NCBI GenBank assembly: GCA_049609225.1
Contig: JBMYYH010000001.1
Location: 6,352 to 70,351 of the forward strand
Reading direction: 5' to 3'
DNA: 64,000 nucleotides
DNA from: Planctomycetota bacterium
GTDB taxonomy: Bacteria > Planctomycetota > UBA1135
Positions 20,759 through 55,341 of the stretch are shown here, piece after piece (position 1 is the stretch's first letter; the number at the start of each line of letters is the position of its first letter). A program made the position numbers and the translations under genes. The notes beneath the pieces are model-generated. The model worked only from the letters and a program-made list of their open reading frames with translations. It searched no databases and had not been told where the DNA came from.

Positions 20759-22909
20759 ATGGCGCCGGTGACCACCATGACCGACTCCGCTGCATCGGCA
20801 ACCCCCTCTCCTCTGGATTCCATCGGGGCAGAGAAACCTATGGTTCGTCTTGGCGTCGCTGAGGCCTCCTCCGCTCAGGTCGTTTTCGCGGGCCTGCAGG
20901 AATCGCTGGAAGTCCGCGTCCATGCGGTGAAGGACGACGGCATCGAGATCCTCAGCTCCACCTTCTATCCCAAGAACACCTGTCTGGATCTGAAGTTGGA
21001 ACCGCCGCGTGGATACGCAACCGCGGAAGGGCAGGATGCGATCGCGCTGACGGGCACCGTCGCCAAGGTGCAGATGGTGGCTGCGGCCCCCACCTACCGC
21101 ATGTGGATTCAGCTGGCGGATTTCGATCCATCGCTGCTGCATGCCATCTGGGTCCAATGCCGGACTGCGGATCAGGAGTCCGCGCAGAAACCCGCTGGAT
21201 TCCCGGCGCCATCCTTCGCAGCTCCAGGTTGGGCCTTGCAGCTCATCCACCAGGGCGTTGTCGACAAGGATCAGTTGCGTCAGGTGATCCTGCGTAGCAA
21301 GGAAGCCGATGCCAATTTGGAAGGCGCGCTGACTGCTGCTGGGTTGGCGAATGCGGAACAGATCGCATCGTGCAAGGCCTTGGAGTTCAGCGTGCCATTC
21401 CTGGACACGCGCGCCTTCGAGATCTGCATGGAGAACCGCGCGCTGCTTTCCCTGGATGTCGCCCGCAAACAGCAGCTATTCCCGCTTTTCCAGCTGGATG
21501 GAGTTCTCACGCTGGGCATGGTTGACCCTACCGATCTAGCCGTCATCGACCAGGTGCGTTTGGAAACGAATTGCCAAGTAGAACCCTGCTTATTGCTGCC
21601 AGCCGCGATCGATGGCCTCATCGACAATGCGCGCCTCAAGCAATCGGCGGCAGCCACGCGTGCCCAGGCCAAGGAAGTGGAAGTCGCAGCGGCCAAGGTG
21701 GAAGACGAGAGTGCCGTCATGAACGCGAACGTGCGCCTGGTGCATTCCATCATCGAAGAGGCTGCGGAGGACGGCGCCAGTGACCTTCACTTCGAACCGG
21801 AGCAAGGACAACTGCGCGTACGGATGCGCGTGGATGGCGTCATGCGTGAGAAGGCGACTTATCCTTCCAGCCAGCAAGCCTCGATCGTTTCGCGCATCAA
21901 GGTGCTGTCCAAACTTGATATCGCGGAGACCCGACGCCCGCAAGATGGTCACTTCAGCATGGAGTTATCCTTCGGAAGTGTTGATATCCGCGTTTCGACG
22001 ATTCCGACGGTCTACGGTGAGAACGTGGTGCTGCGTCTGCTCGTTTCCGAGGGAGAAGTCCTCGGCTTGGAGGATCTCGGCATGGCCGACGACGTCCACG
22101 GCAAGATGGAGGCCTTCCTTGAGAATCCGCATGGCATGATCCTGGTCACTGGCCCTACCGGTAGTGGCAAGACCACCACGCTGTATGCCGCTTTGGCGCG
22201 CCTTGGAACTCCGGAGCGCAATGTGGTCACGGTCGAGGATCCAGTGGAGAAACGAATCCAATTCCTGCGTCAGACGGAGGTGAATCCGAAAGCCGGAGTG
22301 ACCTTCGCGACGGGTTTGCGCAGCATTCTGCGGCAGGACCCGGATGTCATCATGATCGGTGAGATTCGCGATGAGGAAGCAGCGGAGCTTGCGGTGCAGG
22401 CTGCGCTCACTGGCCACTTGGTGTTGAGCACTCTGCATACCAACGATGCCTGTGGCGCCATCGTGCGCCTGAATGAGATGGGCGTGCCCCCATTCCTGAT
22501 CACCTCGTCCTTGCGCGCCGTGATCAGCCAACGACTCGCACGCAAGGTGTGTGAGGTCTGCGCGGAAGAAGTGGCTCCGGACATGCGTCTTGCCGAGGGC
22601 CTTGGACTGGAGGACGTCGCGGGAATCACTTTCCTGCAGGGCGCTGGATGCCCGACTTGCCTGCATTCTGGCTACAAGGGACGCGTCGGATTGTACGAGA
22701 TGCTCGAGTTGAACTCGGAGTTGCGCGCCGCCTTGCTGGGACGTGCATCGCGAAGTGAAATCGAAGCCGTAGCGCAGGATGCGCTGTTCTGCAGCATGCG
22801 CATGGATGGATTGCGTCGGATCCGGGAGGGAGTCACCACCCTGGAAGAGGTCGCCCGCATCGTCGGCTTGAAGACCTCCGTCCAAGATCGCAAACGGGAA
22901 GGTGAATAA
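20759..22909 (+). CDS. GspE/PilB-family type IV filament assembly ATPase with ~150-aa unassigned N-terminal extension
   Basis: T2SSE_N-like region, Walker A GPTGSGKTTT, Asp/His boxes, and tetracysteine CEVC...CPTC. Start trimmed to ATG 20759 because the upstream part of the track ORF overlaps ppa. Confidence 0.9.
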   Translation: MAPVTTMTDSAASATPSPLDSIGAEKPMVRLGVAEASSAQVVFAGLQESLEVRVHAVKDDGIEILSSTFYPKNTCLDLKLEPPRGYATAEGQDAIALTGTVAKVQMVAAAPTYRMWIQLADFDPSLLHAIWVQCRTADQESAQKPAGFPAPSFAAPGWALQLIHQGVVDKDQLRQVILRSKEADANLEGALTAAGLANAEQIASCKALEFSVPFLDTRAFEICMENRALLSLDVARKQQLFPLFQLDGVLTLGMVDPTDLAVIDQVRLETNCQVEPCLLLPAAIDGLIDNARLKQSAAATRAQAKEVEVAAAKVEDESAVMNANVRLVHSIIEEAAEDGASDLHFEPEQGQLRVRMRVDGVMREKATYPSSQQASIVSRIKVLSKLDIAETRRPQDGHFSMELSFGSVDIRVSTIPTVYGENVVLRLLVSEGEVLGLEDLGMADDVHGKMEAFLENPHGMILVTGPTGSGKTTTLYAALARLGTPERNVVTVEDPVEKRIQFLRQTEVNPKAGVTFATGLRSILRQDPDVIMIGEIRDEEAAELAVQAALTGHLVLSTLHTNDACGAIVRLNEMGVPPFLITSSLRAVISQRLARKVCEVCAEEVAPDMRLAEGLGLEDVAGITFLQGAGCPTCLHSGYKGRVGLYEMLELNSELRAALLGRASRSEIEAVAQDALFCSMRMDGLRRIREGVTTLEEVARIVGLKTSVQDRKREGE

Positions 22910-22911
22910 GC

Positions 22912-24174
22912 ATGGCTGCCTTCGCATGTAGAAGTCGAGATGCTTCCGGAACCGCGGTCGAGACCAAGGTCGAGGCCGACACCGTGCGCGACGCCATGGC
23001 GCAGCTCGAAGAGGACGGCCTGTACCCGATCGAGATCCATCCCATTGAGGCTGAATCGGCCGATAAGCCCTCGAAACGGGCAGTATCCGCCGCACCCGAG
23101 CCCAAGAAGGCGGCCCCCAAAGGCCTCCATCGGGTCAAAGTTGGGCGCAAGGAGGTCATGCAGTTCTCCGTGCAGCTCGGCAGCAGTTTGGAGGCGGGCA
23201 TTCCGATTCTCCAGAGTGTCCAGGCCTGCGCCGACATGACCCGCAACCAGAACTTCCAGCAGGTGCTGCAGAGCATGGCTGTGGAGATCGAAGGTGGTGC
23301 TCCGCTGTCCGATGCGATGCGCCAATACCCGAACGTCTTCCCCCATGCCTATGTGGGCACGGTGGCTGCAGGCGAAGCTTCCGGAACTCTCGAGGACATG
23401 CTCGAGAACTTGGTGGAATTCCTCGAAGCCGATCTCGAAGTCCGCTCCGACGTCCGCTCGGCCATCATGTATCCCGCCATCGTGGTGGTTTCCTTGTGCC
23501 TCGCGGTTGCGGTCCTGGTGGTCTTCGTGGTACCGCGCTTCACCGCTTTCTACTCCGGCTTCGACACCGAGCTCCCCGTCGCGACGCGCATGCTGATGAG
23601 CTTCAGCACATTCCTCCAGGAACACTATGCGCTGGTTCTCTTGGGCATGATCGGCGCTGGTTTCGCTCTCTTTCGCATGATGCGTATCCCCGTCATCGCG
23701 ACGGCACGCGATCGTTTCATCCTTAAGATTCCTGTCCTCGGGAAACTCATCGAAACCTCGATTACGCTGCAGGTCGTGCAGCTCCTTGGCCTCTTCACCA
23801 AGGCCGGTGTACCGATTCTTGATGCTATACGCTCCGCTGCAAGCACCGTGGGCAATACCAAGATTCGCCAGGACCTGAATGTGGTGGCAGACGGCATTTC
23901 CTCTGGCCAAACCATGGCTGCAGGCATGCAGGAAGTCGACTGTTTCCCTCCGGAAGCCCGCCATATGCTCGCGAATGGCGAATCCACCGGATCCATGGAA
24001 CGCGCCTGCATGTCCACCGCGAAGCGCTACAAGAAGGAGCTTCGCACCATGACCAAGACGCTTGCGACCCTGATTGAACCCATGCTGACGCTGGTTCTGG
24101 CTGGAATCGTCCTGTTCATTGCCCTGGCTGTGTTCCTCCCCATGTGGGATCTGGCCAACGTCGCGAAAGAATAG
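22912..24174 (+). CDS. GspF/PilC-family inner-membrane platform protein
   Basis: 420 aa with a duplicated T2SSF-type domain (FSVQLGSSLEAGIPILQSV... and ...LGLFTKAGVPILDAIRSA) and three TM helices. Confidence 0.9.
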   Translation: MAAFACRSRDASGTAVETKVEADTVRDAMAQLEEDGLYPIEIHPIEAESADKPSKRAVSAAPEPKKAAPKGLHRVKVGRKEVMQFSVQLGSSLEAGIPILQSVQACADMTRNQNFQQVLQSMAVEIEGGAPLSDAMRQYPNVFPHAYVGTVAAGEASGTLEDMLENLVEFLEADLEVRSDVRSAIMYPAIVVVSLCLAVAVLVVFVVPRFTAFYSGFDTELPVATRMLMSFSTFLQEHYALVLLGMIGAGFALFRMMRIPVIATARDRFILKIPVLGKLIETSITLQVVQLLGLFTKAGVPILDAIRSAASTVGNTKIRQDLNVVADGISSGQTMAAGMQEVDCFPPEARHMLANGESTGSMERACMSTAKRYKKELRTMTKTLATLIEPMLTLVLAGIVLFIALAVFLPMWDLANVAKE

Positions 24175-24292
24175 ATGTTTTTTCCGGAATCCCTAAGGGA
24201 TTCCAAGGCGAAGGTCGATAGGTTCTGCGGCGCTCTGACTCTCCGACAGACCTTCAGGCGACCCATCACCTTCACATCGCACTTGTAAACCA

Positions 24293-24739
24293 ATGAAGCT
24301 AAACAAGACACGCAATGGCCAGGCTGGATTCACCCTTGTGGAACTCGTCGTGGTCATCATCGTCCTCGGTATTCTGGCCGCAATCGCCGTGCCGAAATTC
24401 ATGGATTTCACCACTGACGCCAAAGACTCTGCCCTGAAAGGCAGCCTCGGTGGCGTTCGTTCTGCAATCTCAAACTTCTACGCCTACTCCGGCACTCCTG
24501 CAGGCGGCGGCACCATTGCTTACCCGACCTTGGCTGAGCTGACGACCACCGGAACCGTAATGGCGCAGGGAATCCCTGCGAACCCCTACTCCACCGGAGC
24601 CGATCCTTCTGCCGTGATCGCAGGTACCACCAAAGGCACCCCGGCTACTGCCGGCACGACGGGTGGATGGTGCTACAAGGCGTCCACTGGAGAGTTCTGG
24701 GCCAATACCGCTAGCGGTGCTGGCGAAGCCAGCGAATAA
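24293..24739 (+). CDS. major pilin/pseudopilin candidate (prepilin-type N-terminal cleavage/methylation domain)
   Basis: Leader MKLNKTRNGQAG|FTLVELVVVIIVLGILAAIAVPKF with Glu at +5. 148 aa. Confidence 0.85.
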   Translation: MKLNKTRNGQAGFTLVELVVVIIVLGILAAIAVPKFMDFTTDAKDSALKGSLGGVRSAISNFYAYSGTPAGGGTIAYPTLAELTTTGTVMAQGIPANPYSTGADPSAVIAGTTKGTPATAGTTGGWCYKASTGEFWANTASGAGEASE

Positions 24740-24819
24740 CTGGAGCACATCGAGCGCCGGCCATGCAGCAAACCACCTTTGGATGCTCTGGCCGGCGCTT
24801 TTCCAATTCCTCAACGATC

Positions 24820-25320
24820 ATGAAAAAAGCCCAGCACGGATTCTCCCTGGTGGAGCTCATGCTCATGCTGACGGTCATCGGCATCCTTTCTGGAGTTGCC
24901 GTAGCCTCACTGAACGGGCTGACGTCCTCCCAACAGGATGTTGCAGCCGCTCGCGTTCGCTCGGCAGTGATCCATGCCCAACTGTGGGCCATCAGCACCG
25001 GCGACTCGACCTGGGTCCAGTTCGATGCTGGATCCGACCTGGTCCGCTTGTACTGCGAGGATGAAGGCAATCCGGGCAAAGCCAACCGCGTTGCCATGCT
25101 CGACCCCTTAACGCGAAGCGCCATGGAGATTCACCTTGGCAACGACAGCTCTGGCATTACCTCGGTGGATTTCGACACGACTGCGGAAGTGCAGTTCGAT
25201 GCCCAAGGCCTTCCTTATGACGCCGATGGTGCCCTACTCACTTCCGATGGAGTGGTGGGATTCACTGGCGGCGCCACCCTCCGCGTGACCCGCAACACCG
25301 GATACATCAAGTTGGATTAG
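24820..25320 (+). CDS. minor pseudopilin (GspH-like)
   Basis: MKKAQHG|FSLVELMLMLTVIGILSGVAVASL prepilin signal with Glu at +5. Confidence 0.75.
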   Translation: MKKAQHGFSLVELMLMLTVIGILSGVAVASLNGLTSSQQDVAAARVRSAVIHAQLWAISTGDSTWVQFDAGSDLVRLYCEDEGNPGKANRVAMLDPLTRSAMEIHLGNDSSGITSVDFDTTAEVQFDAQGLPYDADGALLTSDGVVGFTGGATLRVTRNTGYIKLD

Positions 25321-25324
25321 TTCC

Positions 25325-25837
25325 ATGAGAATCCGTACCAACTTGCGACCGGGCCGCTCCGGAACCAACGGTTTCACTCTGGTGGAACTCGTCGCAAGCA
25401 TGACGGTCTTGGCCATCATTGCACTGATTGCTTCCAATGTGATCATGGAGTCGATGCGCGTCTACTCCCGCGCGATTCCTGCCATGGGAGTTTCCTACAA
25501 ATCAGATTTGGCCCTGCGCACGCTCCTGCGTGACATTCGCGACTTGAGCGATCGCAACGCCATCTCGGTGTTCACTAGCACGGCCTTCACTTTCGAGGAT
25601 TCTAACGGCACCGAAATCGCCTATGTCCTTACAGGCACGGACCTGACGCGCAATGGTGACCTGCTGGCTGATGACGTCATCAGCTTCTCCTTTCAATACC
25701 TGGAAAGCGATGGCAGCGTGGCTGGAGATGCGATCGACCTGCACCTCGTCGACATCGATTTCACCGTGCAAAGCGGCAACCAGAGTCTGCGTTCCCGCAG
25801 CCTTGCCTTCCCACGATCTCTGGGGGTATCCCTGTGA
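25325..25837 (+). CDS. minor pseudopilin (GspJ-like)
   Basis: ...RSGTNG|FTLVELVASMTVLAIIALIASNVI prepilin signal with Glu at +5. Confidence 0.75.
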   Translation: MRIRTNLRPGRSGTNGFTLVELVASMTVLAIIALIASNVIMESMRVYSRAIPAMGVSYKSDLALRTLLRDIRDLSDRNAISVFTSTAFTFEDSNGTEIAYVLTGTDLTRNGDLLADDVISFSFQYLESDGSVAGDAIDLHLVDIDFTVQSGNQSLRSRSLAFPRSLGVSL

Positions 25838-26802
25838 TGTTGCTCTCTCCTAGGAAAAGCGCTGCCTCGCAACGAGGCTCTGCCCTGTTACCGCTCGTCG
25901 CCGCCATGTTGATCATGGTGTTGACCGGTGTGGCACTTTCAGAGACTTTCGGCTCGCAACGCATGGAATCCGTCTTGGATGTGGAATCCACGCGCGCGAT
26001 CTGGATTGCGGAAGCTGGAATCTATCACGCTGTCCATGAAGGCAGCGGCATCTCTACGCCGGTTTCCTTCGGCGGCGGAACCTATGCCGTGAATAAGGAT
26101 GGCAACATTTATGTCTCGGATGGAATCCGCGGCATGGCGTATGGCATCGCCACGATGGAAGTCTCCACGGAGGTTGAGAGTGGCCCCTTGGATGTGCCGG
26201 CTTCAATCGCCACACTGGAGATTACGAGCGATAAGAAATATGAGATGAACCTCGTGAGCATCTCCGCGACCGATGTCGAGATTGAATCCTTCGAGCTTAG
26301 CGACGACGCCGATGGGGAGTACGAAGCTCATCGCTTCAAGCTCGACAATCACGATATTTGGCACGAGCACAGTGGTATCGACGTGCCCACTGGAGTCGTG
26401 AACATGAACTCCGGCAACTCCGATAAGCGCACCATCGAGTCGTACGACGACCCGGTCCTGCTCTATCAATCCGATGAGGAGCCGGATGATCCCATTACGT
26501 ACACCCTCGTCCTTCACTTCACGGATGGTCGTCAATCCACTCTGACCTTCACGGTGCCTTGGGGTGACGATGACGATGATGATGATGATGACGATGACGA
26601 CGGCGGAAGCTGTGGTGGTGGCTATGGCTGTGGCGGTGGTTGTGGCAGAGGTAGCTCCGGCCGTGGCTGCGGTGGCGGCGGCTATGGCGGTGGATATGGC
26701 GGTGGCGGATACGGTGGCGGATACGGCGGAGGTTATGGCGGTGGTTATGGTGGAGGTTGTGGTGGCAATGGCGGCGCCGGAGGAGGGCACGAGCACTTCT
26801 AA
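25834..26802 (+). CDS. GspK-like pseudopilin with novel C-terminal domain, D12 tract and Gly/Tyr/Cys-rich tail
   Basis: N-terminus SQRG|SALLPLVAAMLIMVLTG (no Glu at +5, as in GspK). Shared domain at 26182-26562. Then D12 (26566-26601) and the 66-aa tail GGSCGGGYGCGGGCGRGSSGRGCGGGGYGGGYGGGGYGGGYGGGYGGGYGGGCGGNGGAGGGHEHF. Confidence 0.7.
   Translation: MMLLSPRKSAASQRGSALLPLVAAMLIMVLTGVALSETFGSQRMESVLDVESTRAIWIAEAGIYHAVHEGSGISTPVSFGGGTYAVNKDGNIYVSDGIRGMAYGIATMEVSTEVESGPLDVPASIATLEITSDKKYEMNLVSISATDVEIESFELSDDADGEYEAHRFKLDNHDIWHEHSGIDVPTGVVNMNSGNSDKRTIESYDDPVLLYQSDEEPDDPITYTLVLHFTDGRQSTLTFTVPWGDDDDDDDDDDDDGGSCGGGYGCGGGCGRGSSGRGCGGGGYGGGYGGGGYGGGYGGGYGGGYGGGCGGNGGAGGGHEHF
26566..26799 (+). repeat. 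in-frame low-complexity coding repeat: (GAY)12 followed by GGN-GGN-TAY-type repeats
   Basis: gac gat gac gat gat gat gat gat gac gat gac gac, then repeated ggc ggt gga tat / ggc gga tac units up to the stop at 26800-26802. Confidence 0.9.
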
Positions 26803-27923
26803 TGCGCACTTCTCACAACCAAAGAACCAGTTGCTCCAAACGGTTCACGGATGTTGCCCAACGTGGCATCACCCTGGTGGAGACCGTCATCGCGGTCTTG
26901 GTACTGGGCATTGCTGTCCCCCCACTGGTGACCCTCTTCGGAGAAGTCTCCACGCAAACGGTGGATGACTCTTACCAGCGTGTCGCGTTGATCTATGCCG
27001 AGTCGATGCTCGAGGAGATCGTCTCCAAGGAGTTCGAAGACCCGCAGTCAAGCACGGGTAGCTTCGGCACGGAAGAAGGTCTACGCGCGAATTTCGATGA
27101 CATCGATGACTTCGATGGCCTGAGCAACTCCCCGCCCAAGCATATCGATGGAAGCCTACTCGATCAGTACGCCGGCTTCACGCGCAGCGTCATCATCGAC
27201 AATGTCACTGCAGAGGAAACGGATCCAGCAAGCGCGGAATCCGATGGTTCCACCGACTTCAAGCGCATTCGCGTGACGGTGGCGTGGACGTCCGGTCGCG
27301 GTGGTGAAGTCACCTTGGCGACCTTGCGTTCGCAACTTTCGACAGCAGGACCGACTGGATTACTGGATGTCCCTGCTTCCGTCGCGACGATTCGTAAGAC
27401 CGCTTCCAAGAAGTTCGCTCTGGACCTCGTCAACATTTCCGGGGAAGACCTGGTCATTGAATCCTTCGAGATAAGCGAAGGTAGTAGTGAAAGTAGTGGC
27501 AGTGGCTGTGTCGCGAGTTGTGTTTGTTGCGGCGGCGTCGGCACTTGCCCCTATGACTGCGATGATCGCCACGAGGATGAAGATGACATCTGCGATGACG
27601 AAGATGATCTCGACGGTGATGATGAAGATGACTGCGGATATGACGGAGACGACGACGATGATGATGACGACCCTGAAACCAAGGTCAAGAAGCTCCGCCT
27701 AGACTCCAAACAGATTTGGTCCAAGGGCAGCGGCATCTGGTTGCCGACCGGCATCACCGACCTCAATAAGGGCAGCACCTCCGACCGCACCATTGATTGG
27801 GACGACTCTCCCAAGCTCGAATTCCAGGTGAAGGAAAAGCCCGAGGACAGCATGGCTTACACGCTGACCCTGTATTTCACGGACGGCCGTAGCTCGACGC
27901 TTCCCTTCACGGTCGATTGGTAG
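26802..27923 (+). CDS. GspI-like pseudopilin with paralogous novel domain interrupted by a Cys/Asp-rich insertion
   Basis: ATG 26802 overlaps the upstream TAA. Prepilin signal AQRG|ITLVETVIAVLVLGI with Glu at +5. Shared domain at 27357-27920, with a 66-aa insertion at 27480-27677 (8 Cys, 30 Asp/Glu, ends in D8). Confidence 0.7.
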   Translation: MRTSHNQRTSCSKRFTDVAQRGITLVETVIAVLVLGIAVPPLVTLFGEVSTQTVDDSYQRVALIYAESMLEEIVSKEFEDPQSSTGSFGTEEGLRANFDDIDDFDGLSNSPPKHIDGSLLDQYAGFTRSVIIDNVTAEETDPASAESDGSTDFKRIRVTVAWTSGRGGEVTLATLRSQLSTAGPTGLLDVPASVATIRKTASKKFALDLVNISGEDLVIESFEISEGSSESSGSGCVASCVCCGGVGTCPYDCDDRHEDEDDICDDEDDLDGDDEDDCGYDGDDDDDDDDPETKVKKLRLDSKQIWSKGSGIWLPTGITDLNKGSTSDRTIDWDDSPKLEFQVKEKPEDSMAYTLTLYFTDGRSSTLPFTVDW

Positions 27924-27939
27924 AAGAACGGGCTTACTG

Positions 27940-27972
27940 GCCTGAAAACAGCGCTTTTTAGGCGGTTTTTTC
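27940..27972 (+). terminator. terminator/attenuator-like hairpin between the pilin genes and pilM-like gene
   Basis: gcctgaaaa-cagcgc-tttttaggc (one mismatch) followed by ggtttttt. Lies 17 nt after the stop at 27921-27923. Confidence 0.35.
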
Positions 27973-28040
27973 ACTTAAGGGAATTCCCCTCTTTTTCCGA
28001 AAAGAAGCAGGGACTCCCTCCTGGCACGTACGACCAGACC

Positions 28041-29747
28041 ATGGAATCCCCCTCGTCCATGAAATCCTTTCGCAAGAGACACCGTCACACCGTCGTGGTG
28101 GATATCGGTCGCGGCTCCATCAAGATGGCTGCGGCGGAAGCTGCTGGAGAAGCGCGTCGGTTCCGCAACATCACCAAGGTTGCTCTGCCACAAGAGGACA
28201 TCCTCGGGGAGGAGGATTTGGCCAAGGTCGTCGAGCAGTTGCGTGCCGAGGTCTTGAAGAACGGCTGGAATGGTGCGCCGGCAGCCTGCCTGCTTTCGCA
28301 ACGATCCACCAGCACCCATACCTATCTGCTGCCGCCCATGCCTGATGAAGAGATTCGTCAAGCCATCGAATTGAAACTGCGAGATACGCTGCATTTCGAT
28401 GTCGACGAAGCGGTGTTCGATTTCCGCTGCAATCAGGATGCTGCCGACGCCGACCAGCCCCGCATGATGGTTCAGGTGGTCGTCGCGCGGAAGGATGCCC
28501 TGCTGCGCAACTTGTCCGTGATTCGCCAAGCTGGACTGCACCCCGTCTCGGTGAGTGCGGCGAGTGAATCTCTGGCCAACCTCACTTGCTTGAGCAGTCT
28601 CGAGCACCAAGATGAGGCTTCCATCCACATCGACCTTGGCACCGATTCCACGGTCATCAACCTGTTCGATGGTCAGGTTCTTCGTTTCAGTCGGGAGATC
28701 GACGTCACCGGCGACAGTTTCGCCGAAGCCTTGACGCGGCCAATCCTCACGACGACCCAAGATGTCGTGCGCCTGACGTTGAACCAAGCACGTGAAATCC
28801 TCCTTCTGACGGGATTCCCCCGCACCGATACCGGCGTGGTGCTTCCGCATGGCGTCAGTGTCGCTGACATCATGCCGCTCGCCGCTCCGGTAGCGCAGAA
28901 GCTCACCACCGAGATCCGACGTTCGATCGAATACCTCAATGGTCTGCTCGACCGCACCGGAAAAGTCGAGATCGTGTTGTCTGGATCCGCTGGGTCCATG
29001 CCGAACCTGAGCCGGATGCTTGAGGAGAACCTGCATCATCCGGTTTCCTTCGTCGATCCAGTGGAACACGCCATCGAGCATTGGCGTCTTGCCATCTGCG
29101 ACGAGAACCCACCCCCCGCTGCAGAGTTCTCCGCAGTCCTCGGCTATTCGCTGGGACATCATGTGCCGCTCAACCTGCTGTCCCAGGAAGAGGCTGCCAA
29201 TGAAGCGCGTCAACGTGCGACTCGTGACCAACGCGTGCGCGCGACGGGTGCCGTCGCCCTTCTTTCCTGCTTGGCAATGGTCGCGCTCCCTTTGAACCGC
29301 AGTTACGTCAACGCCAACAAGCAGGCCAAAAGCACATCCATCACCCTGGATGGTCAGATTGCCGAGCAATCCGCTGCGGTTTCGCAATGGGCGGCATTCC
29401 AGGACAAGACCACCAAGGTCGCCTTGGCGCGCGGCCCCATCGCCGACTGGTCCGGTGTGATGAAGGAGATCACTGCCCTCCTTCCCGATTCCGTTCAGAT
29501 CACTTCGCTGGAGACGGATCGCAAGGATGGCGCCTTAGTCATCCATATGGAAGCCCGGGTCTATCCCGGCATGCAGGCGAGTCGCGCCACCTTGACGCGC
29601 CTGTCCCAGGCCTTGAATGATTCGCCGTTCTTCGACAAGGTCCGTGTGATCCAGGCATCGGTTCCGGTGCAGGACACCAAGGGCAAATTCGAAGCCACCT
29701 TCGAGGTCATCACGCCTCCCATCCGCACGGAGGCCTTGCCATCATGA
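28041..29747 (+). CDS. PilM-PilN fusion (GspL-like) assembly protein
   Basis: N-terminal actin-like PilM region (TVVVDIGRGSIKMAAAE...), then a single TM helix (GAVALLSCLAMVALPL) and a PilN-like periplasmic part. 568 aa. Confidence 0.75.
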   Translation: MESPSSMKSFRKRHRHTVVVDIGRGSIKMAAAEAAGEARRFRNITKVALPQEDILGEEDLAKVVEQLRAEVLKNGWNGAPAACLLSQRSTSTHTYLLPPMPDEEIRQAIELKLRDTLHFDVDEAVFDFRCNQDAADADQPRMMVQVVVARKDALLRNLSVIRQAGLHPVSVSAASESLANLTCLSSLEHQDEASIHIDLGTDSTVINLFDGQVLRFSREIDVTGDSFAEALTRPILTTTQDVVRLTLNQAREILLLTGFPRTDTGVVLPHGVSVADIMPLAAPVAQKLTTEIRRSIEYLNGLLDRTGKVEIVLSGSAGSMPNLSRMLEENLHHPVSFVDPVEHAIEHWRLAICDENPPPAAEFSAVLGYSLGHHVPLNLLSQEEAANEARQRATRDQRVRATGAVALLSCLAMVALPLNRSYVNANKQAKSTSITLDGQIAEQSAAVSQWAAFQDKTTKVALARGPIADWSGVMKEITALLPDSVQITSLETDRKDGALVIHMEARVYPGMQASRATLTRLSQALNDSPFFDKVRVIQASVPVQDTKGKFEATFEVITPPIRTEALPS

Positions 29748-30304
29748 TGCGCACGCTTACGAACTCCTCCATCCGCTTCCTCGGCAGCGGCCCTGGACTC
29801 GCCATCATCCTGGTCATCGCTTTGGCATGGGTGGTCGTGCACCTCTCCGGGTTGAAGAGTGAATCCGGACGCCTCCAAGAGGAAGTGGCGGGCAAGCAGG
29901 AGACCTTTACGCGCAACATCGCGTTCGCAAATGGATCGGCTAACCACAAGTTCGCCAAGAGTGAACTCGCGAAATGGCAGGATCTTGCGGAGCACGAAGC
30001 TTCGCGCATCTCGGCCCTGTCCATCGTCGCGCAAAGCGCGGAAGCCACCATCGTGTCCCTGCGTAGCCGCGAATCCGAAGTCCTGAAGGAACAGGGATTG
30101 GCCCGCCTCTCCCACGAGATCGAGACCGTCGGCCAACAGCACCAAATCGCCGCATTCCTCGACGGCATCTATTCCATGGAAGGGATGGCGTCGATTGAAT
30201 CGATGGTGCTCACCGCGGAGGACGAAGACGATCCCGAAACCCTGGTCGCCTTCCTTACCGTGACCTGGCATGCACCGCATGAGACGGAGGAGGATCCATC
30301 ATGA
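29744..30304 (+). CDS. PilO/GspM-like bitopic assembly protein
   Basis: N-terminal TM helix (GLAIILVIALAWVVV), a coiled coil, and a C-terminal ferredoxin-like segment (HEIETVGQQHQIAAFLDGIYSMEG). Position in the operon supports the call. Confidence 0.55.
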   Translation: MMRTLTNSSIRFLGSGPGLAIILVIALAWVVVHLSGLKSESGRLQEEVAGKQETFTRNIAFANGSANHKFAKSELAKWQDLAEHEASRISALSIVAQSAEATIVSLRSRESEVLKEQGLARLSHEIETVGQQHQIAAFLDGIYSMEGMASIESMVLTAEDEDDPETLVAFLTVTWHAPHETEEDPS

Positions 30305-30777
30305 ATCAGCCCTCCAAGCGCATGAAGGTGTTCCTCGGCAGCGCCGTCATCCTGATCGCCGCCGTCGCAGCATTGCCTTCGAAAGGGGCGCAAGGCTCGA
30401 CCGCAACCAACCAGGAAGGTTTCGTGCCGAAGCCTTTCCGTTCCAATGCATCCGCAACGGAAATCCCACAAGGTGATGCGATGACGCTCCAACGCCGTCG
30501 CTCTGAAGAGTTGTCCTGGGGACGCAATCCATTCCGCGACCCTCGTGATTACCTGGATACCACCGAACGTGTTCCTCAGTACGTGGCAAAAGACCTGCCC
30601 AAACTTTCCGGCATCTCCACGATTGGAGACGAGCGCATGGCCATCATCGGTCGGCAGATCGTCGGCGTGGGTGATGTCCTTGAATCCGGTCACCTGGTGA
30701 CGGGAGTCTCGGAAACCAACGTTTCGCTGCAACGCGAAGGCAAAGGCTACACCTTGCATCTGGAGATGAAACCATGA
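30301..30777 (+). CDS. PilP/GspC-like protein
   Basis: Signal/TM segment (VFLGSAVILIAAVAAL). C-terminal beta domain LSGISTIGDERMAIIGRQIVGVGDVLESGHLVTGVSETNVSLQREGKGYTL. Lies immediately upstream of the secretin gene. Confidence 0.5.
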   Translation: MNQPSKRMKVFLGSAVILIAAVAALPSKGAQGSTATNQEGFVPKPFRSNASATEIPQGDAMTLQRRRSEELSWGRNPFRDPRDYLDTTERVPQYVAKDLPKLSGISTIGDERMAIIGRQIVGVGDVLESGHLVTGVSETNVSLQREGKGYTLHLEMKP

Positions 30778-32396
30778 ATCCAATCCCCCTGACTTGCGGC
30801 ATCCTGAGCTTATGCGCCGTATTCGCGACACCAGCCCCAGCGCAGCAGTCTGAAGCCGCGCAGGAGCCGACGATCAGCCTGCAGTTGGTCGATACGGATA
30901 TCCGTGATGCCCTACGCATGGTCGCGAAACAAGGCGACATCAACCTGGTCATGAGCAATGGCGTCGAAGGTTCCCTTTCCTTGGAGCTGAACGATGTCAC
31001 CATTCGTGAGACGCTGGACGCCATCGTCAGTGTCGGCGGCTATCGCTACAACATCAACGGCAACATCGTCACGGTGACTTCCCTGGAGGAAGAACTGGAG
31101 CGCGATCGCCTGCGCGCTGAGGTCTATCCGGATCTGCCACCGGAGCTTGATGCCCTGGTGATTGAGTTGCGCTATGTCGATGCCGAACGCGTGAAGGCCG
31201 TGGTCGAGAAGATGCTCAATCAGACGGGTTCCGTTTCCATCCTGAAGACCCCGGACCAGGTCGCGCAGACCAACCGCAATCAGTACGGCGTCAACGGACG
31301 CAGTGGCGGCAACTACAACAACAACGGTTCCAACCGTCAGCAAGGCAACTCCGGCGAGAGCCTCCAGATCGCCAGTCAGTTGACCTCCTCGACCCAGGGA
31401 ACTCCGGCCGTGTCCCACACCCTCGTGGTGATGGACACGCCGGCGAAGTTGGAGCAGGTGCAGAAGGTCGTCGATCGCATCGACGTCAAGCCACCGCAGG
31501 TCCTGATCGAAGCCCGTTTCGTCGAAGTCTCCTTGGACGACGTCGACAAGATGGGTATCGATTGGAACTTGGTCGCAAGCGCGACGGGTGGCTCCACACC
31601 GACGACGTTCCCATTCGGTGACTCTACGCTCGGCTCCTTCGGCCCGAACGTCGAAGGTGGCACTGGACCTGGTGTCTACCCATCCGCGCCGAACTCCGTC
31701 TCTTCGCCGACGGCCGCGGGACTCTTCACCTTCGGAACGCTGGACTTCTCCGCCTTCTCCGCAGTCCTGCAGTTGATCCAGACGGATTCGCGCGTGAAGA
31801 TCGTCTCGAATCCACGCATCGTGGTCGGTGACCGTCATACGGCAACCATCCTCGTGGGTGAGCGTTATCCGATCCTGAGCGCGAACATCTCTGAGTTCGG
31901 CACCGTGACCGAGCAGCTGGATCGCTACGAGCCGATCGGTGTGCAACTCGAAGTCACGCCTGCAGTCCTCGGCGATGATGAAATCGAACTCCTGGTGCGC
32001 CCTTCGACCAGTTCGCTCGGCGGCGTCGTCTCCGGTTCGACTGGATTGGAAGTCGCGCGGATCAACTCGCGTCAGATCGACACTTCCGTCACGACCAAAG
32101 ACACCCAGACGGTGGTTCTCGGCGGTCTTTTCACCACGCGTGAAGTCGACGAGAAATCGGGTATCCCCTACCTCAGCGCGGTGCCCTTGGTCGGTGGACT
32201 GTTCGAAAGCGAAACCACCACGGTGGAGCGCGTCGATCTCGTGATCTTCCTGACCGTGACCATCGTGCACGAAGGAGGCCTCACCGCCTCGCAGAAGCAG
32301 ATGTTCGATGACTCCACCGTCGATGAACAGGTCATGCTCGACCCCAACAAGCCGCAAAGCCGTCTCGGCTTCAGCTCTACTGGCCCGCAAGAGTAG
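30774..32396 (+). CDS. secretin (GspD/PilQ family)
   Basis: Signal peptide, N0-like domain (ISLQLVDTDIRDALRMVAKQGDINLV), and secretin core (VKIVSNPRIVVGDRHTATILVGERYPI ... TVVLGGLFTTREVDEKSGIPYLSAVPLVGGLF). Confidence 0.9.
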   Translation: MNPIPLTCGILSLCAVFATPAPAQQSEAAQEPTISLQLVDTDIRDALRMVAKQGDINLVMSNGVEGSLSLELNDVTIRETLDAIVSVGGYRYNINGNIVTVTSLEEELERDRLRAEVYPDLPPELDALVIELRYVDAERVKAVVEKMLNQTGSVSILKTPDQVAQTNRNQYGVNGRSGGNYNNNGSNRQQGNSGESLQIASQLTSSTQGTPAVSHTLVVMDTPAKLEQVQKVVDRIDVKPPQVLIEARFVEVSLDDVDKMGIDWNLVASATGGSTPTTFPFGDSTLGSFGPNVEGGTGPGVYPSAPNSVSSPTAAGLFTFGTLDFSAFSAVLQLIQTDSRVKIVSNPRIVVGDRHTATILVGERYPILSANISEFGTVTEQLDRYEPIGVQLEVTPAVLGDDEIELLVRPSTSSLGGVVSGSTGLEVARINSRQIDTSVTTKDTQTVVLGGLFTTREVDEKSGIPYLSAVPLVGGLFESETTTVERVDLVIFLTVTIVHEGGLTASQKQMFDDSTVDEQVMLDPNKPQSRLGFSSTGPQE

Positions 32397-32416
32397 ATCG
32401 CACCAAAGGCAACATC

Positions 32417-33262
32417 ATGAAACCACTCGCGCATCCGTCGAAAGCACTCGCCGTCCTACTCGTGTCGACCGTGATCGGTTGTGCTTCGGCCAGCCCCATG
32501 ATGGAGGCCGGCGATCGGCATCTCGCGACGCATGATTACCACAAGGCCTTGGCCAGCTATGACCTTGCCCTTCAGGAGAAGGAGTCCGGTGCATCGCACG
32601 CCGGTCGCGCCCGCGCACTCGTTGCCCTTGGGCATGCTGACGCAGCCATCGCCGCCTACGCCCAGGCGTTGGTGTTCGAGCCGCAACGCGCGGATTGGCA
32701 TGTCGGTATCGCAGTCGTCCGCCTCGGCCAACGCGACCTGGATGCAGCCATTGCTTCCTGCAATCAGGCCATTGCACTCGACCCTTCTTGTGCACGCGCT
32801 TTCTACAACCGTGGGTTCGCGCATCAACTGCAGGGCGACCGCGAGTTGGCGTTCCAGGATTACTGCAATGCCATCCAAGCCGATGCCGCTTTTGCCGACG
32901 CCTACAACAGCCGAGGCATTCTTCTCGCCGAGCAAGGTGACATGGCGAAGGCCATGCAGGACTTCCAGGCGGCTGTCCAACGCTCTCCGCAACTCGCGAA
33001 TGCATACGCCAACATGGCTTCCGTGCATTATTCCGCCGGAGATGCAGAGCGCGCCTTCATGAACCTGAACGCCGCCATCCGCGCCGAACGCGACAACCCG
33101 CTTTACTACAAGAACCGTGGGTTGATCTATTTCGATCTCGGCAAGCATGCGATGGCGCATAAGGATTTTGAGCAGGCCTTGATCCTCTCACCAGAGGATC
33201 CACATCTCAAGGATCTCCATGCACGGACCCAGCCCGCGGAACTCGCCTCGATGGAACGATGA
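32417..33262 (+). CDS. TPR-repeat lipoprotein (possible secretin pilotin, PilF/PilW-like)
   Basis: Lipobox LLVSTVIGC followed by about 6 TPR units (AxxAYxxALxxxP patterns). Confidence 0.75.
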   Translation: MKPLAHPSKALAVLLVSTVIGCASASPMMEAGDRHLATHDYHKALASYDLALQEKESGASHAGRARALVALGHADAAIAAYAQALVFEPQRADWHVGIAVVRLGQRDLDAAIASCNQAIALDPSCARAFYNRGFAHQLQGDRELAFQDYCNAIQADAAFADAYNSRGILLAEQGDMAKAMQDFQAAVQRSPQLANAYANMASVHYSAGDAERAFMNLNAAIRAERDNPLYYKNRGLIYFDLGKHAMAHKDFEQALILSPEDPHLKDLHARTQPAELASMER

Positions 33263-34149
33263 AGTTGGTCTCCCTCAAGAATCCGAAGCCGAAGAAGAGC
33301 GCTAGCCCCTTTCAGGTCGATGCGCGCGGCCGTGGCCTGTCCGTGAAGCAAGCAGCTCTCGTTGAGCCGGCTGCATTACTCGCTTCTCCTGCAGATCCCA
33401 CGCAAGCACTCGCGGACCGCGAGTCCTTCGAGAAAGTCGTTGCCGCGACCCTCGCCAAGGACCTTGCGCAACTGACACTTGGCTTCGCCATGGCCGAGGA
33501 ATGCGCGAATGCCCTGGAAACCCTGAACTTGGGCCGCTGCAGTGAAACTCCCGACCCCTACCGCATGGTTTGGGTCGCCTCTGAAGGGCGCGAACCCCTG
33601 CGTGGAGTCGTGATTCCCGGACGCTCCGGTGAAGTCGCGGTGTTCTGCCCAGTGAAAGGCGATGCTCCCACCACCATCGGTACCGAGATTGACCTTTCCT
33701 ATCGTGACAGCAAGTCCGATTTGACTTACGACCTACAATTGCTCGACACCGTCTGTCTTGCCGATGCACGCGTGCTGCACTTGGGACGACGTCAGGATCC
33801 GGAAACGGGACATGGGCGTGTGACTGCGCGCCATGAAGTCGAGATTGTCGGATTCGTCCGACGGACGGATGCCGTCGATGGTCCAGCGACCCCCATGCCA
33901 TGCCGCATCGTCGATATCAGCTTCGGCGGCTTGCGTTTGACCTGCACCACGCGTCTCGAGAAGGGTATTCAGATCCAACTCGATGTCTTCCTCGACGACG
34001 GCATCGCTGAACCACTTTCCGTGGCCTGTGAAGTACGTTGGGTCGAGATGGTTCCGGAAGGCCATCAAATCGGACTGCATTTCGGCGAACTGCCGGAGGA
34101 ACAGTCCAAGCGCCTGGAACAAGCGATTGGCCTAATCCGCGCTACTTGA
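33259..34149 (+). CDS. PilZ-domain protein (YcgR-like architecture)
   Basis: C-terminal PilZ motifs RVTAR (33817-33831, RxxxR) and DISFGG (33913-33930, DxSxxG), preceded by a PilZN-like beta region. Confidence 0.8.
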   Translation: MKLVSLKNPKPKKSASPFQVDARGRGLSVKQAALVEPAALLASPADPTQALADRESFEKVVAATLAKDLAQLTLGFAMAEECANALETLNLGRCSETPDPYRMVWVASEGREPLRGVVIPGRSGEVAVFCPVKGDAPTTIGTEIDLSYRDSKSDLTYDLQLLDTVCLADARVLHLGRRQDPETGHGRVTARHEVEIVGFVRRTDAVDGPATPMPCRIVDISFGGLRLTCTTRLEKGIQIQLDVFLDDGIAEPLSVACEVRWVEMVPEGHQIGLHFGELPEEQSKRLEQAIGLIRAT

Positions 34150-35660: not shown

Positions 35661-36131
35661 ATGAGCACCCTTGTTGTTTCTGCACTTGTCGCGGCGCCGG
35701 CTGATGCCGTCTTTGAGGTCTACACCGATCTCGAGAAGGCGGTGGATCGCATTCCCGAGATCGTCGCCTTGGAGTTGCTCACGGATGGCCCCGTCGGGGT
35801 CGGGACGCGATGGCGCGAGACCCGCTTGATGTTCAAGAAAGAGGCCGTCGAGGAGATGGAGATCACTTCCTTCGATCGTCCGAGCCAATACGTGGTGGAA
35901 GCGAACTCCCATGGATCGCTTTACCGCACCGTATTCGACTTCGTGGAGGAAGATGGCGGCACCCGCGTCTTCTGGACTTTCCACACCACGGCGCAAAGCT
36001 TCGGTGCCAAGATCATGGCCCCCATCTTCAAGCTGTTGATGAGCGGCATGATGCGCAAACTCATGCAGAAGGAATTGGAAACCCTAGGCGCCGTCTGTGA
36101 ACAGGAAGTGGGCGCAAGCGTTCACGACTAG
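35661..36131 (+). CDS. SRPBCC (START/polyketide-cyclase-like) family protein
   Basis: MSTLVVSALVAAPADAVFEVYTDLEKAVDRIPEIVALELLTDGPVGVGTRWRETR... is a typical SRPBCC N-terminus. Start trimmed to ATG 35661. Confidence 0.7.
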   Translation: MSTLVVSALVAAPADAVFEVYTDLEKAVDRIPEIVALELLTDGPVGVGTRWRETRLMFKKEAVEEMEITSFDRPSQYVVEANSHGSLYRTVFDFVEEDGGTRVFWTFHTTAQSFGAKIMAPIFKLLMSGMMRKLMQKELETLGAVCEQEVGASVHD

Positions 36132-36857
36132 ATGAGCCAAGATGGGCGGCACGATGGAACCCGTCCGCAGCCGTAGCCAGCCGAGAAGGAGCCCACCGAT
36201 AAAACGATGCGGGAACTCGAGGACGGCGCCACCATTGAGGCCGTGCAACAGCGCGAATAGGGCGGAAGTGGCAAGGATGGTGGCGCGCGTATTGCCGATC
36301 CGCAGCATCGCTTCCCAGGCGACCCCTCGCATCAACCACTCTTCCACCAGCGGTGCCAGCAGCACTACCGTCCACCAACGCGAGGGCCAGGATTCCAGCT
36401 CCCCATCAAGCAGGGCATTGATGCTATTGGCATAGGCCATGTTGATGCCAAAGCAGACTGCACCACTAAGCAATCCCAACCCCAAGGCCGCGGCTCCAAA
36501 ACTCCCGCCGAGGATCTTTTCCCGCGATGGCCACCCGAGAATCCAGAGAGCCATCACTCCAATGCCTGTCATGAAGATATGGGTGAGCCCCCAATCATCT
36601 TCCAGGGCCGCCCCGAGGATGAGCGAAAAGACGCCACCTGTAAAGAGAACCCCGAGGGCATAGGAAGCCCTGCGCATAGGCGCACCTTCATCCGCGAAAT
36701 CGGCCGCCATCTTCTTCTGGCCAGCCAAGGTCGCCGTGCCGCATTGCGGACAGAAATGCAGATCACGGGTCAAAGAGGTTCCACAATTGCGGCACCCCCC
36801 TTGGGGAAGCGTTCGTTCGCTCAAGACCGGGGTGGTTTGATCGAAGTCGTGATCCAC
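36084..36857 (-). CDS. CPBP-family intramembrane glutamic endopeptidase with N-terminal zinc ribbon
   Basis: Zinc ribbon CRNCG...CPQCG. CPBP motifs APLVEEWLMRG and FALLHGLN. Multiple TM helices. Confidence 0.8.
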   Translation of the reverse strand: MDHDFDQTTPVLSERTLPQGGCRNCGTSLTRDLHFCPQCGTATLAGQKKMAADFADEGAPMRRASYALGVLFTGGVFSLILGAALEDDWGLTHIFMTGIGVMALWILGWPSREKILGGSFGAAALGLGLLSGAVCFGINMAYANSINALLDGELESWPSRWWTVVLLAPLVEEWLMRGVAWEAMLRIGNTRATILATSALFALLHGLNGGAVLEFPHRFIGGLLLGWLRLRTGSIVPPILAHLVVNACAHFLFTDGA

Positions 36858-41640: not shown

Positions 41641-41714
41641 AAGGATACCCCATATTGCCGGAACTGGCTGTTCGTTCCAGGGTTACGCCTTTGTCCGCTT
41701 CCCTAGCAGAGCCC

Positions 41715-48656: not shown

Positions 48657-48683
48657 TGTAACGGATTCGCTGCTGGCGGTGTA
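48657..48683 (+). promoter_or_regulatory. candidate ECF-type promoter upstream of second sigma-fusion gene
   Basis: TGTAACG-N13-CGGTGTA ends 10 nt before ATG 48694. Confidence 0.35.
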
Positions 48684-48693
48684 TTTCCTCCTG

Positions 48694-55200: not shown

Positions 55201-55341
55201 GCTTTCGGCCGACGCCTCGCTTTCGCCGACCGCAGCTTCAATCGCCTCGCCGGGCGTTTCCAAGTAGCCGGCATGCATCACTTGGCGCTGTACTTCGCCA
55301 AGTTCCAGGACCGCTTCCAGCAGCCTAAGGCGCAACACTAG
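52240..55341 (+). CDS. CRTAC1/ASPIC-family FG-GAP repeat protein with UnbV_ASPIC and C-terminal TlpA-like thioredoxin domain; in-frame TGA (candidate selenocysteine) at 54025-54027
   Basis: Track ORFs 52240-54027 and 54046-55341 are in the same frame. Signal peptide and FG-GAP/VCBS repeats (GDVNGDGLDDLYV, DLDNDGDQDLV, DIDNDGDVDLYVAN, DVDDDGDLDILVTN, DINNDGLEDIYSPNGF). Then ...NSDDL[TGA]SFFWRRVTSQSP... followed by the UnbV_ASPIC region (DWDGDGRVDLLLRNRNAPRLRLLRN...SNRDAIGARV...GEGFLSQNS) and LINFWSTTCASCIEEF. Confidence 0.7.
54036..54064 (+). promoter_or_regulatory. candidate bacterial SECIS hairpin downstream of the CRTAC1-like TGA
   Basis: CUGG-CGGCG-CGUGA-CGUCG-CAAUCU-CCAG: lower 4-bp stem, upper 5-bp stem (one G-U pair) and 5-nt loop. 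The loop starts 18 nt after the UGA. Confidence 0.35.

Follow-up and report, generated by a model that had tools for sequence, protein, structure and literature searches.

A compact type IVa pilus-type locus with a predicted PilZ-PilB fusion in uncultured Planctomycetota

Introduction

Does a compact gene cluster that combines traits of type II secretion systems (T2SS) and type IVa pili (T4aP) encode a secretion machine, a surface fibre or a true hybrid of the two? The question is raised by a 13-gene locus in a 64,000-nucleotide (nt) stretch of DNA, hereinafter the window, from a metagenome-assembled genome (MAG) of Planctomycetota (contig JBMYYH010000001.1, positions 6,352 to 70,351). The original prediction described this locus as a T2SS/T4aP hybrid that lacks PilT and a prepilin peptidase and might export six exoproteins encoded in the same window. 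A full-text literature search did not retrieve any work on the type IV filament machinery of Planctomycetota. Here we examine each component of the locus and its relatives. The most plausible reading, to which we assign a probability of slightly below 0.6, is that this single locus of uncultured Planctomycetota encodes a T4aP-type fibre that carries adhesive tip modules and is gated by cyclic di-GMP (c-di-GMP).

Results

Conservation of the locus in uncultured Planctomycetota

The locus spans positions 20759-34149 and consists of 13 open reading frames (ORFs; g1 to g13, Table 1), all on the plus strand. In the NCBI annotation of a Planctomycetota MAG, the 13 appear as the consecutive protein records MGB0951606-618, with the secretin labelled 'hypothetical'. 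The ORFs occupy the predicted positions in the predicted shared direction, their Pfam and NCBIfam domains agree with the gene content proposed originally, and the near-complete set of components confirms a type IV filament locus.

The protein in which PilM and PilN are fused (g8) has 55 homologs of about 560 amino acids (aa), all from metagenomes or MAGs, and a genome scan with an alignment of nine PilM-PilN sequences yielded only three short MAG contigs and no cultured relative. For comparison, we used six metagenomic contigs (L004-L009) that show 38-91% identity to the window in the PilM-PilN protein. The gene order is the same in all six: an ATPase of 686-711 aa, the platform protein, a major pilin of 144-148 aa and a variable block of minor pilins are followed by PilM-PilN, PilO, the PilP-like protein, the secretin, a tetratricopeptide repeat (TPR) protein and a PilZ protein. 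The genes flanking the locus vary between these relatives. Because synteny is retained while the flanks differ, the cluster is a functional unit under selection rather than a chance string of ORFs. The locus is a conserved type in an uncultured lineage of Planctomycetota. The relatives vary in their pilins: L004 encodes one clear minor pilin along with a 60-aa ORF, L007 carries the major pilin gene in two tandem copies (L007:6210-7164), and L008 contains an extra T2SSG-like pilin gene after the PilZ gene (L008:16340-16858).

A PilZ-fold domain at the N-terminus of the assembly ATPase

The assembly ATPase g1 matches the Pfam families T2SSE (432 bits) and MshEN (54 bits) and begins with two degenerate domains, one with a PilZ fold (aa 1-135) and the other an N1 domain of the MshEN type (aa ~149-291); they are followed by the catalytic core, which comprises the N2D and C-terminal (CTD) domains and contains the Walker A and tetracysteine motifs. 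The N-terminal extension of about 130 aa is common to the ATPases of the clade. It produced no usable Pfam match (E up to 10), and none in a profile comparison with PDB sequences. Structure prediction with AlphaFold2 (AF2) from an alignment of 31 sequences yielded a beta barrel (predicted local distance difference test, pLDDT, 85), for which the top Foldseek matches are nearly all PilZ domains, including those of MotI, Alg44, MrkH, VCA0042, PlzA, XC PilZ and YcgR (probability 1.00, template modelling score, TM, ~0.5). A profile search against 1.84 billion representative sequences retrieved 208 proteins, mostly stand-alone ones of 110-160 aa, and 44 of 60 such stand-alone relatives match the Pfam PilZ family (PF07238). 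Judging from the structural model and these matches, the N-terminal domain is a PilZ fold homologous to PilZ-family proteins. Neither g1 nor any of the five orthologs scanned has the c-di-GMP-binding signature of PilZ, RxxxR followed by [DN]xSxxG, in this domain. A review of PilB cofactors makes no mention of a PilZ-PilB fusion (PMC11656802).

Residues 149-282 of g1 match the N-domain of Xanthomonas citri PilB that was crystallised with PilZ (7LKM/7LKO). We searched this region for the c-di-GMP motif of MshEN with strict and relaxed 24-residue patterns, the latter taken from PMC5013675. The motif was found in none of the 45 ATPases of the clade, g1 included, even in its relaxed form, compared to 17 of 66 other PilB/GspE-like matches (relaxed pattern). 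Judged by its sequence, the N1 domain of g1 has lost the MshEN c-di-GMP motif.

The affiliation of the ATPase itself is less clear-cut. The best NCBIfam model is PilB (544 bits, cut-off 676), and GspE (TIGR02533) follows at 526 bits (cut-off 630). The best PDB match of the full-length protein is Thermus PilF; for the catalytic core, Thermus PilF (378.8 bits) and Vibrio EpsE (378.2 bits) score virtually the same, with Geobacter PilB (~343 bits) and Myxococcus PilB (337 bits) next. The phylogeny that had been proposed as a check gave a partial answer. In a neighbour-joining tree of 31 sequences with few references (377 columns, 200 bootstraps), a separate clade (99%) unites the window ATPase with its relatives and lies outside the proteobacterial GspE clade (100% support), and the deeper nodes have bootstrap values of 38-54%, so that the deep branching of the window clade is without support.

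Two side observations concern the wider families of this protein. The closest relatives of its N-terminal domain make up a family of about 200 stand-alone PilZ proteins of 110-160 aa (P0213-P0295). Some ATPase homologs of about 1010-1040 aa (P0116-P0123) have strong HMMER scores with no single BLAST alignment, and may be tandem or duplicated T2SSE ATPases.

A candidate c-di-GMP receptor encoded in the operon

The last gene of the locus, g13, encodes a protein that begins with a helical segment and continues with a beta domain, followed by a canonical PilZ domain (49.4 bits in Pfam, cut-off 22.5) with the motif RVTAR...DISFGG; the RxxxR...[DN]xSxxG signature is conserved in all six orthologs scanned, and the N-terminal half gave no usable Pfam match (E up to 10). 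These features make g13 a candidate c-di-GMP receptor. Binding of a PilZ protein to the N-domain of PilB is an established mechanism in Xanthomonas (PMC8389850). Because the PilZ motifs of g13 are intact whereas the MshEN motif of the ATPase is lost, we propose that c-di-GMP gating operates via g13; by analogy with Xanthomonas, g13 would sense c-di-GMP and pass the signal on to the N-terminus of the ATPase.

A conserved major pilin and two modular minor pilins

The prepilin N-methylation motif, with the site G|F(T/S)LVE, is recognizable in g3, g4, g5 and g7, the g7 match being weak and below the Pfam cut-off. The major pilin g3 has a 12-aa leader with the cleavage site G|FTLVE. Its best PDB matches are MshA (E 5e-12), Geobacter PilA-N, Thermus PilA5 and PilE, all ahead of GspG; the match to the GspG model (38 bits, cut-off 88.85) covers the N-terminal helix alone, and the head domain has no Pfam T2SSG match. 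Between the window and L004-L008, identity is 68-79% for the whole of g3 and 65-83% for its head domain, compared to 50-62% for the ATPase and 57-68% for the secretin.

Orthologs of all four minor pilins (g4-g7) occur in L005-L009, and the four can be typed as H-like, J/W-like (by elimination), K/X-like and I/V-like, respectively. The g4 protein contains an N_methyl match and scores 36 bits with gspH, below the cut-off; its orthologs extend to L004. The g5 protein likewise contains an N_methyl match. In g6, the hydrophobic N-terminus is pilin-like, lacks Glu5 and any Pfam match, and includes a 'WIAEAG' motif; the AF2 model (pLDDT 88) consists of a long alpha-1 helix, a 4-strand sheet and an Ig-like beta sandwich that corresponds to aa 104-242. 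The g7 protein, with weak XpsI and PilV matches, carries a module of about 140 aa that is homologous to the one in g6 (48% identity over 82 aa), and orthologs of both g6 and g7 carry the module in the relatives. No usable match to the module was found in Pfam (E up to 10). In L008, two minor pilins, one of them the g5 ortholog, bear lectin-type Laminin_G_3 modules in place of the beta-sandwich module (L008:7248-9489). Modular pilins are a known, widespread device for adhesion at the tip (PMC8179133).

In both g6 and g7, the module is accompanied by low-complexity sequence encoded by tandem-repeat DNA. The tail of g6 consists of poly-Asp and Gly-Tyr/Cys (GGYGG) repeats (nt 26563-26799), and the g7 module is split by a 65-aa insert (aa 226-290, nt 27477-27671) in which 9 Cys occur along with extended stretches of Asp/Glu. 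Both segments are retained, with different lengths, in the 91%-identical relative L009, where the 9-Cys insert of g7 is kept; they are absent from more distant orthologs, and among the 20 homologs of g6 that were found, none has the long tail. These segments may bind metals or minerals.

The pilins and the ATPase also bear on the possibility that the locus encodes a competence pilus comparable to Thermus pilMNOWQ/PilF, which would deliver DNA to unlinked ComEA and ComEC. Thermus PilF, the best full-length match of g1, is a competence as well as a pilus ATPase, g3 resembles PilA5 of the narrow Thermus pilus, and its conservation could mirror a fixed ligand; furthermore, DNA uptake is possible in some systems that lack PilT (PMC6668835). 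However, the equal scores of PilF and EpsE on the catalytic core make the first of these matches non-specific, the strongly acidic poly-Asp stretches of the tip pilins would repel DNA, and comEA, comEC and dprA were not found in the window or in the flanks of the related loci. We consider DNA uptake a very improbable function of this locus.

Platform, alignment complex and secretin

The platform protein g2 matches T2SSF (185 bits) in two stretches, and its best-scoring NCBIfam model is GspF (317 bits, cut-off 424). The remaining envelope components are of the pilus type. The g8 protein has an actin-like domain in the cytoplasm and, beyond a single transmembrane segment, a PilN-like domain in the periplasm, with matches to PilM_2 (63 bits) and, weakly, PilN in Pfam and to pilM (111 bits) and the Amuc_1101 family (63 bits) in NCBIfam. 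With E values of 3e-26 to 1e-10, the profile of the g8 family matches the solved PilM structures from Myxococcus, Thermus and Pseudomonas, whereas GspL was not among its matches, which speaks against the 'GspL-like' description of this protein. For g9 and g10, originally given the double labels PilO/GspM and PilP/GspC, GspM and GspC signatures are lacking, and the profile of g9 matches PilO of M. xanthus and P. aeruginosa (E 3.5e-4 to 1e-3), with a weak match to PilO in Pfam. The g10 protein is anchored in the membrane by its N-terminus and has a beta domain at the C-terminal end, without a PDZ domain, and its orthologs match T2SSB weakly; its best, weak affinity is to PilP, which its place between PilO and the secretin fits.

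The secretin g11 (Pfam Secretin, 134 bits) consists of the secretin core preceded by an N0/STN domain and a single Secretin_N domain, the latter with a low-complexity insert; it has neither AMIN domains nor an N1-N3 series. PilQ is the nearest family both in NCBIfam (PilQ 232 bits, cut-off 284; GspD 203 bits, cut-off 351; MshL 138 bits, cut-off 250) and among the PDB matches (PilQ 125-108 bits, GspD 107-82 bits). In all loci compared, the secretin gene is directly followed by g12, which encodes a protein with TPR-family repeats and a VIGC lipobox that scores 72 bits with PilW (cut-off 154) and 63 bits with Tgl (cut-off 225) and may be the pilotin (PilF/PilW/Tgl type) of the secretin.

A TPR gene after the secretin gene within a single locus is also among the features expected of a mannose-sensitive haemagglutinin (MSH)-type pilus, in which the ATPase is controlled by c-di-GMP, and the gene order here presumably resembles that of Vibrio msh. 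The MshEN-family domain of g1 and the MshA match of g3 point in the same direction. An MSH-type pilus nevertheless seems hardly probable, given that the MshL score of g11 is below the cut-off and below that of PilQ, that the c-di-GMP motif of MshEN is missing throughout the clade, and that the locus includes no MshM-like gene.

Pilus or secretion system?

Taken together, the typed accessory components, namely PilM-PilN, PilO, the weakly matching PilP, the PilQ-like secretin, the TPR lipoprotein and the pilin, are pilus-type, and for this reason the architecture of the locus appears to be that of a T4aP. The PilM-PilN-PilO-PilP complex is present, with PilM and PilN fused, PilO clear and PilP weak. 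T4aP, too, possess four core minor pilins (FimU-PilVWX), and g4-g7 provide such a set. Several hallmarks of T2SS were not found, namely a GspE-type ATPase, a GspD-type secretin with an N0-N1-N2-N3 chamber, GspG, GspL, GspM and GspC, the last of which the final TXSScan model requires. T4aP are treated by the TXSScan models as multi-locus systems, with pilD as a 'loner' that need not be part of the locus (PMC6668835). The absence of pilT and pilD from the locus, along with four minor pilins, is normal for T4aP.

What remains of the proposed hybrid is that the core proteins, the secretin among them, cannot be assigned to either system; the T2SS-like traits are not specific to T2SS, and the label is largely an effect of nomenclature and divergent sequences. 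T2SS branches within the diversity of T4aP, and the TXSScan survey classed 884 systems as 'generic', under a model that also catches chimeric systems (PMC6668835). Given this class, the mixed profile of the locus is unsurprising in itself.

Several observations weigh against the T4aP assignment. All core proteins score below the NCBIfam equivalog cut-offs. For g10, PilP of M. xanthus (E 0.07) is the sole plausible PDB profile match. The Foldseek matches of g6 are generic Ig-like sandwiches with low TM (the adhesins Als, CNA and ClfA, and archaeal FlaF/FlaG), from which a specific ligand of the module cannot be inferred. PilT, PilD and PilY1 were found neither in the window nor in the 10-kb surroundings of any related locus: a tblastn search detected no second T2SSE-family ATPase in the 64 kb, no Peptidase_A24 domain was found among the window ORFs scanned, and the 10-kb flanks of the six related loci contain neither, in agreement with the original observation that pilT and prepilin peptidase genes are not nearby. 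Finally, g3 is the most conserved protein of the locus, above the ATPase.

Whereas T2SS pseudopilins typically show strong conservation of the major subunit, exposed T4a pilins usually do not. The unusual conservation of g3 therefore keeps in play a machine that is functionally a T2SS, derived from a T4aP-like ancestor, in which a short g3 pseudopilus would act as a piston pushing folded exoproteins through the secretin. Such a system would also account for the absence of a retraction ATPase from the locus and its flanks, the preference of the platform protein for GspF and the similarity of the ATPase core to EpsE; the six exoproteins with a common C-terminal domain in the same window might be among its substrates. 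A precedent exists in the Bacteroidetes 'T2SS', which clusters with T4aP and yet secretes proteins (PMC6668835). On the other hand, GspC, GspL, GspM and GspN signatures are all missing and the accessory proteins match PilM, PilO and PilP, the secretin has a single N-domain instead of the N0-N3 chamber, the pilin head does not match T2SSG, and the ATPase falls outside the GspE clade. Furthermore, the lectin-type and Ig-like tip modules suit adhesion better. Nor does the proposed link to the exoproteins have conserved support: none of the related pilus loci has their shared C-terminal domain in its flanks, and the neighbouring genes differ among the relatives. Overall, a secretion function appears unlikely, even if it deserves serious consideration. 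More doubtful still is an independent T4aP-derived machine for protein export or surface display in Planctomycetota that would have converged functionally with T2SS, as has been proposed for the Bacteroidetes system, with a short and strongly conserved pseudopilus, a PilB with a built-in PilZ adaptor that is gated by the c-di-GMP receptor of the operon, and poly-Asp and Cys-rich modules at the tip that bind metals or minerals.

Predicted mechanism

Under the T4aP reading, the five pilins would be cleaved by an unlinked prepilin peptidase, and the minor pilins g4-g7 would form the priming complex that ends up at the tip of the fibre. The g1 ATPase would act on the g2 platform so that the major pilin is polymerised, with g8-g10 (PilM-PilN, PilO and PilP) keeping the ATPase and platform in register with the outer membrane. 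The fibre would then exit through g11, a short secretin of the PilQ type, the assembly of which would be aided by g12. At the tip, the K/X-like and I/V-like pilins would display the Ig-like modules along with the acidic, Cys-rich and Gly-Tyr-rich segments. Because the tip pilins are predicted to display beta-sandwich modules, adhesion to surfaces or particles seems to be the most likely output. Assembly is probably gated by c-di-GMP, with g13 acting on the N-terminus of the ATPase, which combines the PilZ-fold domain with the motif-less MshEN-type domain. Thus, we infer an exposed, adhesive fibre wired to c-di-GMP, for which the prepilin peptidase and any retraction ATPase are encoded elsewhere.

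Gene boundaries, regulatory DNA and neighbouring genes

The genes of the locus (Table 1) are tightly packed, with 6 of the 12 junctions overlapping by 1-4 nt, 4 separated by gaps of 2-23 nt, and only 2 by gaps of about 118 nt, namely, g2-g3 before the major pilin gene and g7-g8 before the PilM-PilN gene. The most likely starts of g6 and g7 are ATG 25837 and ATG 26802, both within TGATG overlaps, and g4 may alternatively start at 24820. The locus is bordered at the 5' end by a gene for inorganic pyrophosphatase and at the 3' end by a gene for an AraC/GyrI regulator, both on the minus strand.

Table 1 Coordinates of the 13 genes of the locus and of other features in the window
Feature	Coordinates	Strand	Assignment or basis
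g1	20759..22909	+	PilB/GspE-type assembly ATPase, 716 aa
PilZ-fold N-domain of g1 (predicted)	20759..21163	+	AF2, Foldseek and profile search
g2	22912..24174	+	Inner-membrane platform protein, PilC/GspF
g3	24293..24739	+	Major pilin, 148 aa
g4	24763..25320	+	Minor pilin, GspH/FimU-like
g5	25325..25837	+	Minor pilin, GspJ/PilW class by elimination
g6	25837..26802	+	Minor pilin, GspK/PilX class
g7	26802..27923	+	Minor pilin, GspI/PilV-like
Terminator-like hairpin, then GGTTTTTT	27940..27963	+	g7-g8 gap; consensus match only
g8	28041..29747	+	PilM-PilN fusion, 568 aa
g9	29744..30304	+	PilO
g10	30301..30777	+	PilP-like periplasmic protein
g11	30774..32396	+	Secretin, 540 aa
g12	32417..33262	+	TPR lipoprotein
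g13	33259..34149	+	c-di-GMP receptor candidate, canonical PilZ
Exoproteins	8218-10092(+), 39055-41640(-), 41655-43373(+), 43585-45222(+), 56731-57783(-), 59923-60498(+)		Shared C-terminal domain

Both long gaps contain conspicuous DNA elements. Upstream of g3, there is a perfect palindrome, GGAATCCCTAAGGGATTCC, at 24186-24204; upstream of g8, the segment 27940-27988 contains a hairpin with a T-run and then the palindrome GGGAATTCCC. The hairpin may mark an operon sub-boundary or function as an attenuator; terminator-like sites as a class are not strongly enriched in our scan (17 found vs 9.3 expected). We rejected a shared operator formed by GGAATCCCTAAGGGATTCC and GGGAATTCCC, given that the motif occurs 4 times in the window vs 3.3 expected and that GGAATCCCTAAGGGATTCC is not kept in L009, at 91% identity. 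A sigma-54 promoter at TGGCACG upstream of g8 was discarded as well: there is no GC at -12, and the site lies 10 nt from the start codon. In a scan for sigma-70 promoters, the sites were no more frequent than expected by chance.

The six exoproteins are predicted to be secreted, and all end in a domain (about 90-100 aa; pattern ...IP..a.L.G....lQa.v.D....) for which there is no Pfam match; among the six are an S8 peptidase, a Sortilin/BNR-like protein and two di-haem cytochrome c peroxidases. Two genes beyond the 3' end of the locus, 36084-36857(-) encodes a CAAX-type, Rce1-like membrane protease with an N-terminal zinc ribbon. This protease was dismissed as a stand-in for the prepilin peptidase because it belongs to another family and is not found beside the loci of L004-L008. 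Further downstream, two tandem paralogs of about 930 aa, at 45854-48646(+) and 48679-51486(+), combine an N-terminal extracytoplasmic function (ECF) sigma factor (regions 2 and 4) with a long C-terminal part that shows a weak CarboxypepD_reg-like match, an unusual sigma factor fusion. The region 52240-55341(+) encodes two adjacent FG-GAP/ASPIC-UnbV repeat proteins, the second of which is fused to an AhpC/TSA-redoxin-like domain.

Discussion

The locus described here is an unusual variant of a well-known machine, and the general picture of type IV filaments is unchanged by it. The distinctive traits of this compact planctomycetal locus are the PilZ-PilB fusion, the putative PilZ receptor encoded in the operon, the paired modular tip pilins and the unusually conserved major pilin. 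It represents one conserved, compact architecture that could be added to classification models. The fused PilZ-PilB can be viewed as a 'Rosetta stone', which supports the view that the partnership of PilZ and PilB found in Xanthomonas and Pseudomonas is both ancient and widespread. In combination with the PilZ protein of the operon, the fusion suggests a testable wiring of pilus assembly to c-di-GMP outside Proteobacteria. The poly-Asp and Cys-rich tip modules suggest how particle-attached marine planctomycetes might bind surfaces, and the conserved major pilin poses a concrete question of pilus versus secretion.

Comparison with known systems

The closest overall resemblance is to the T4aP of P. 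aeruginosa, M. xanthus and T. thermophilus, with which the locus shares the ATPase, the platform, the pilin, four minor pilins, PilM/N/O/P, a PilQ-like secretin and a TPR lipoprotein, the accessory parts having T4aP proteins as their best sequence matches. It differs from these pili in being confined to a single locus with no PilT/PilU, PilD or PilY1 nearby, in the fusion of PilM and PilN, the absence of AMIN domains from the secretin, the unusual conservation of the pilin and the extra PilZ-fold domain predicted in the ATPase. The T2SS (Gsp/Eps/Xcp) resembles the locus in its single operon, the lack of a retraction ATPase, four minor (pseudo)pilins, a conserved major subunit and an EpsE-similar catalytic core. 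In contrast to T2SS, the locus lacks GspC/L/M/N, its secretin has one N-domain, the head of its pilin is not GspG-like, its ATPase is outside the GspE clade, and a TPR lipoprotein takes the place of a small pilotin.

For the regulatory module, the best parallel is the PilB-PilZ-FimX complex of X. citri (7LKM/7LKN/7LKO; PMC8389850), in which a non-binding PilZ-fold module likewise sits at a PilB N-domain without the c-di-GMP motif, and c-di-GMP is sensed by a separate protein. In the window, unlike in X. citri, the PilZ-fold domain is fused to PilB, the putative sensor is a PilZ protein encoded in the operon rather than a GGDEF-EAL protein, and the interaction is a predicted one. The MSH system of Vibrio cholerae, with its ATPase MshE, is similar in occupying a single locus, in the MshEN-family N-terminus and in the pilin, for which MshA is the best PDB match; in the window, however, the MshEN motif is lost, and the secretin is nearer to PilQ than to MshL.

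Within the PVC superphylum, the Amuc_1098-1102 cluster of Akkermansia also encodes a long PilM-like protein that extends beyond the actin-like domain, and g8 matches positions 5-461 of the 608 in the Amuc_1101 model. The scores are nonetheless far below the cut-offs (63 vs 650 for Amuc_1101 and 76 vs 750 for Amuc_1098), the window secretin is much shorter, and there is no Amuc_1100-like gene. As for the tip, the modular pilins of Streptococcus sanguinis (PilB/PilC) and enterotoxigenic Escherichia coli (CofB; PMC8179133) similarly carry a grafted beta-rich or lectin module, presumably located at the tip, and the ConA-like Laminin_G_3 module of the L008 orthologs is reminiscent of S. sanguinis PilC. 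The window locus differs from these in that the same module, which has no database signature, is present on two core minor pilins and is supplemented with poly-Asp, Cys-rich and Gly-Tyr repeats.

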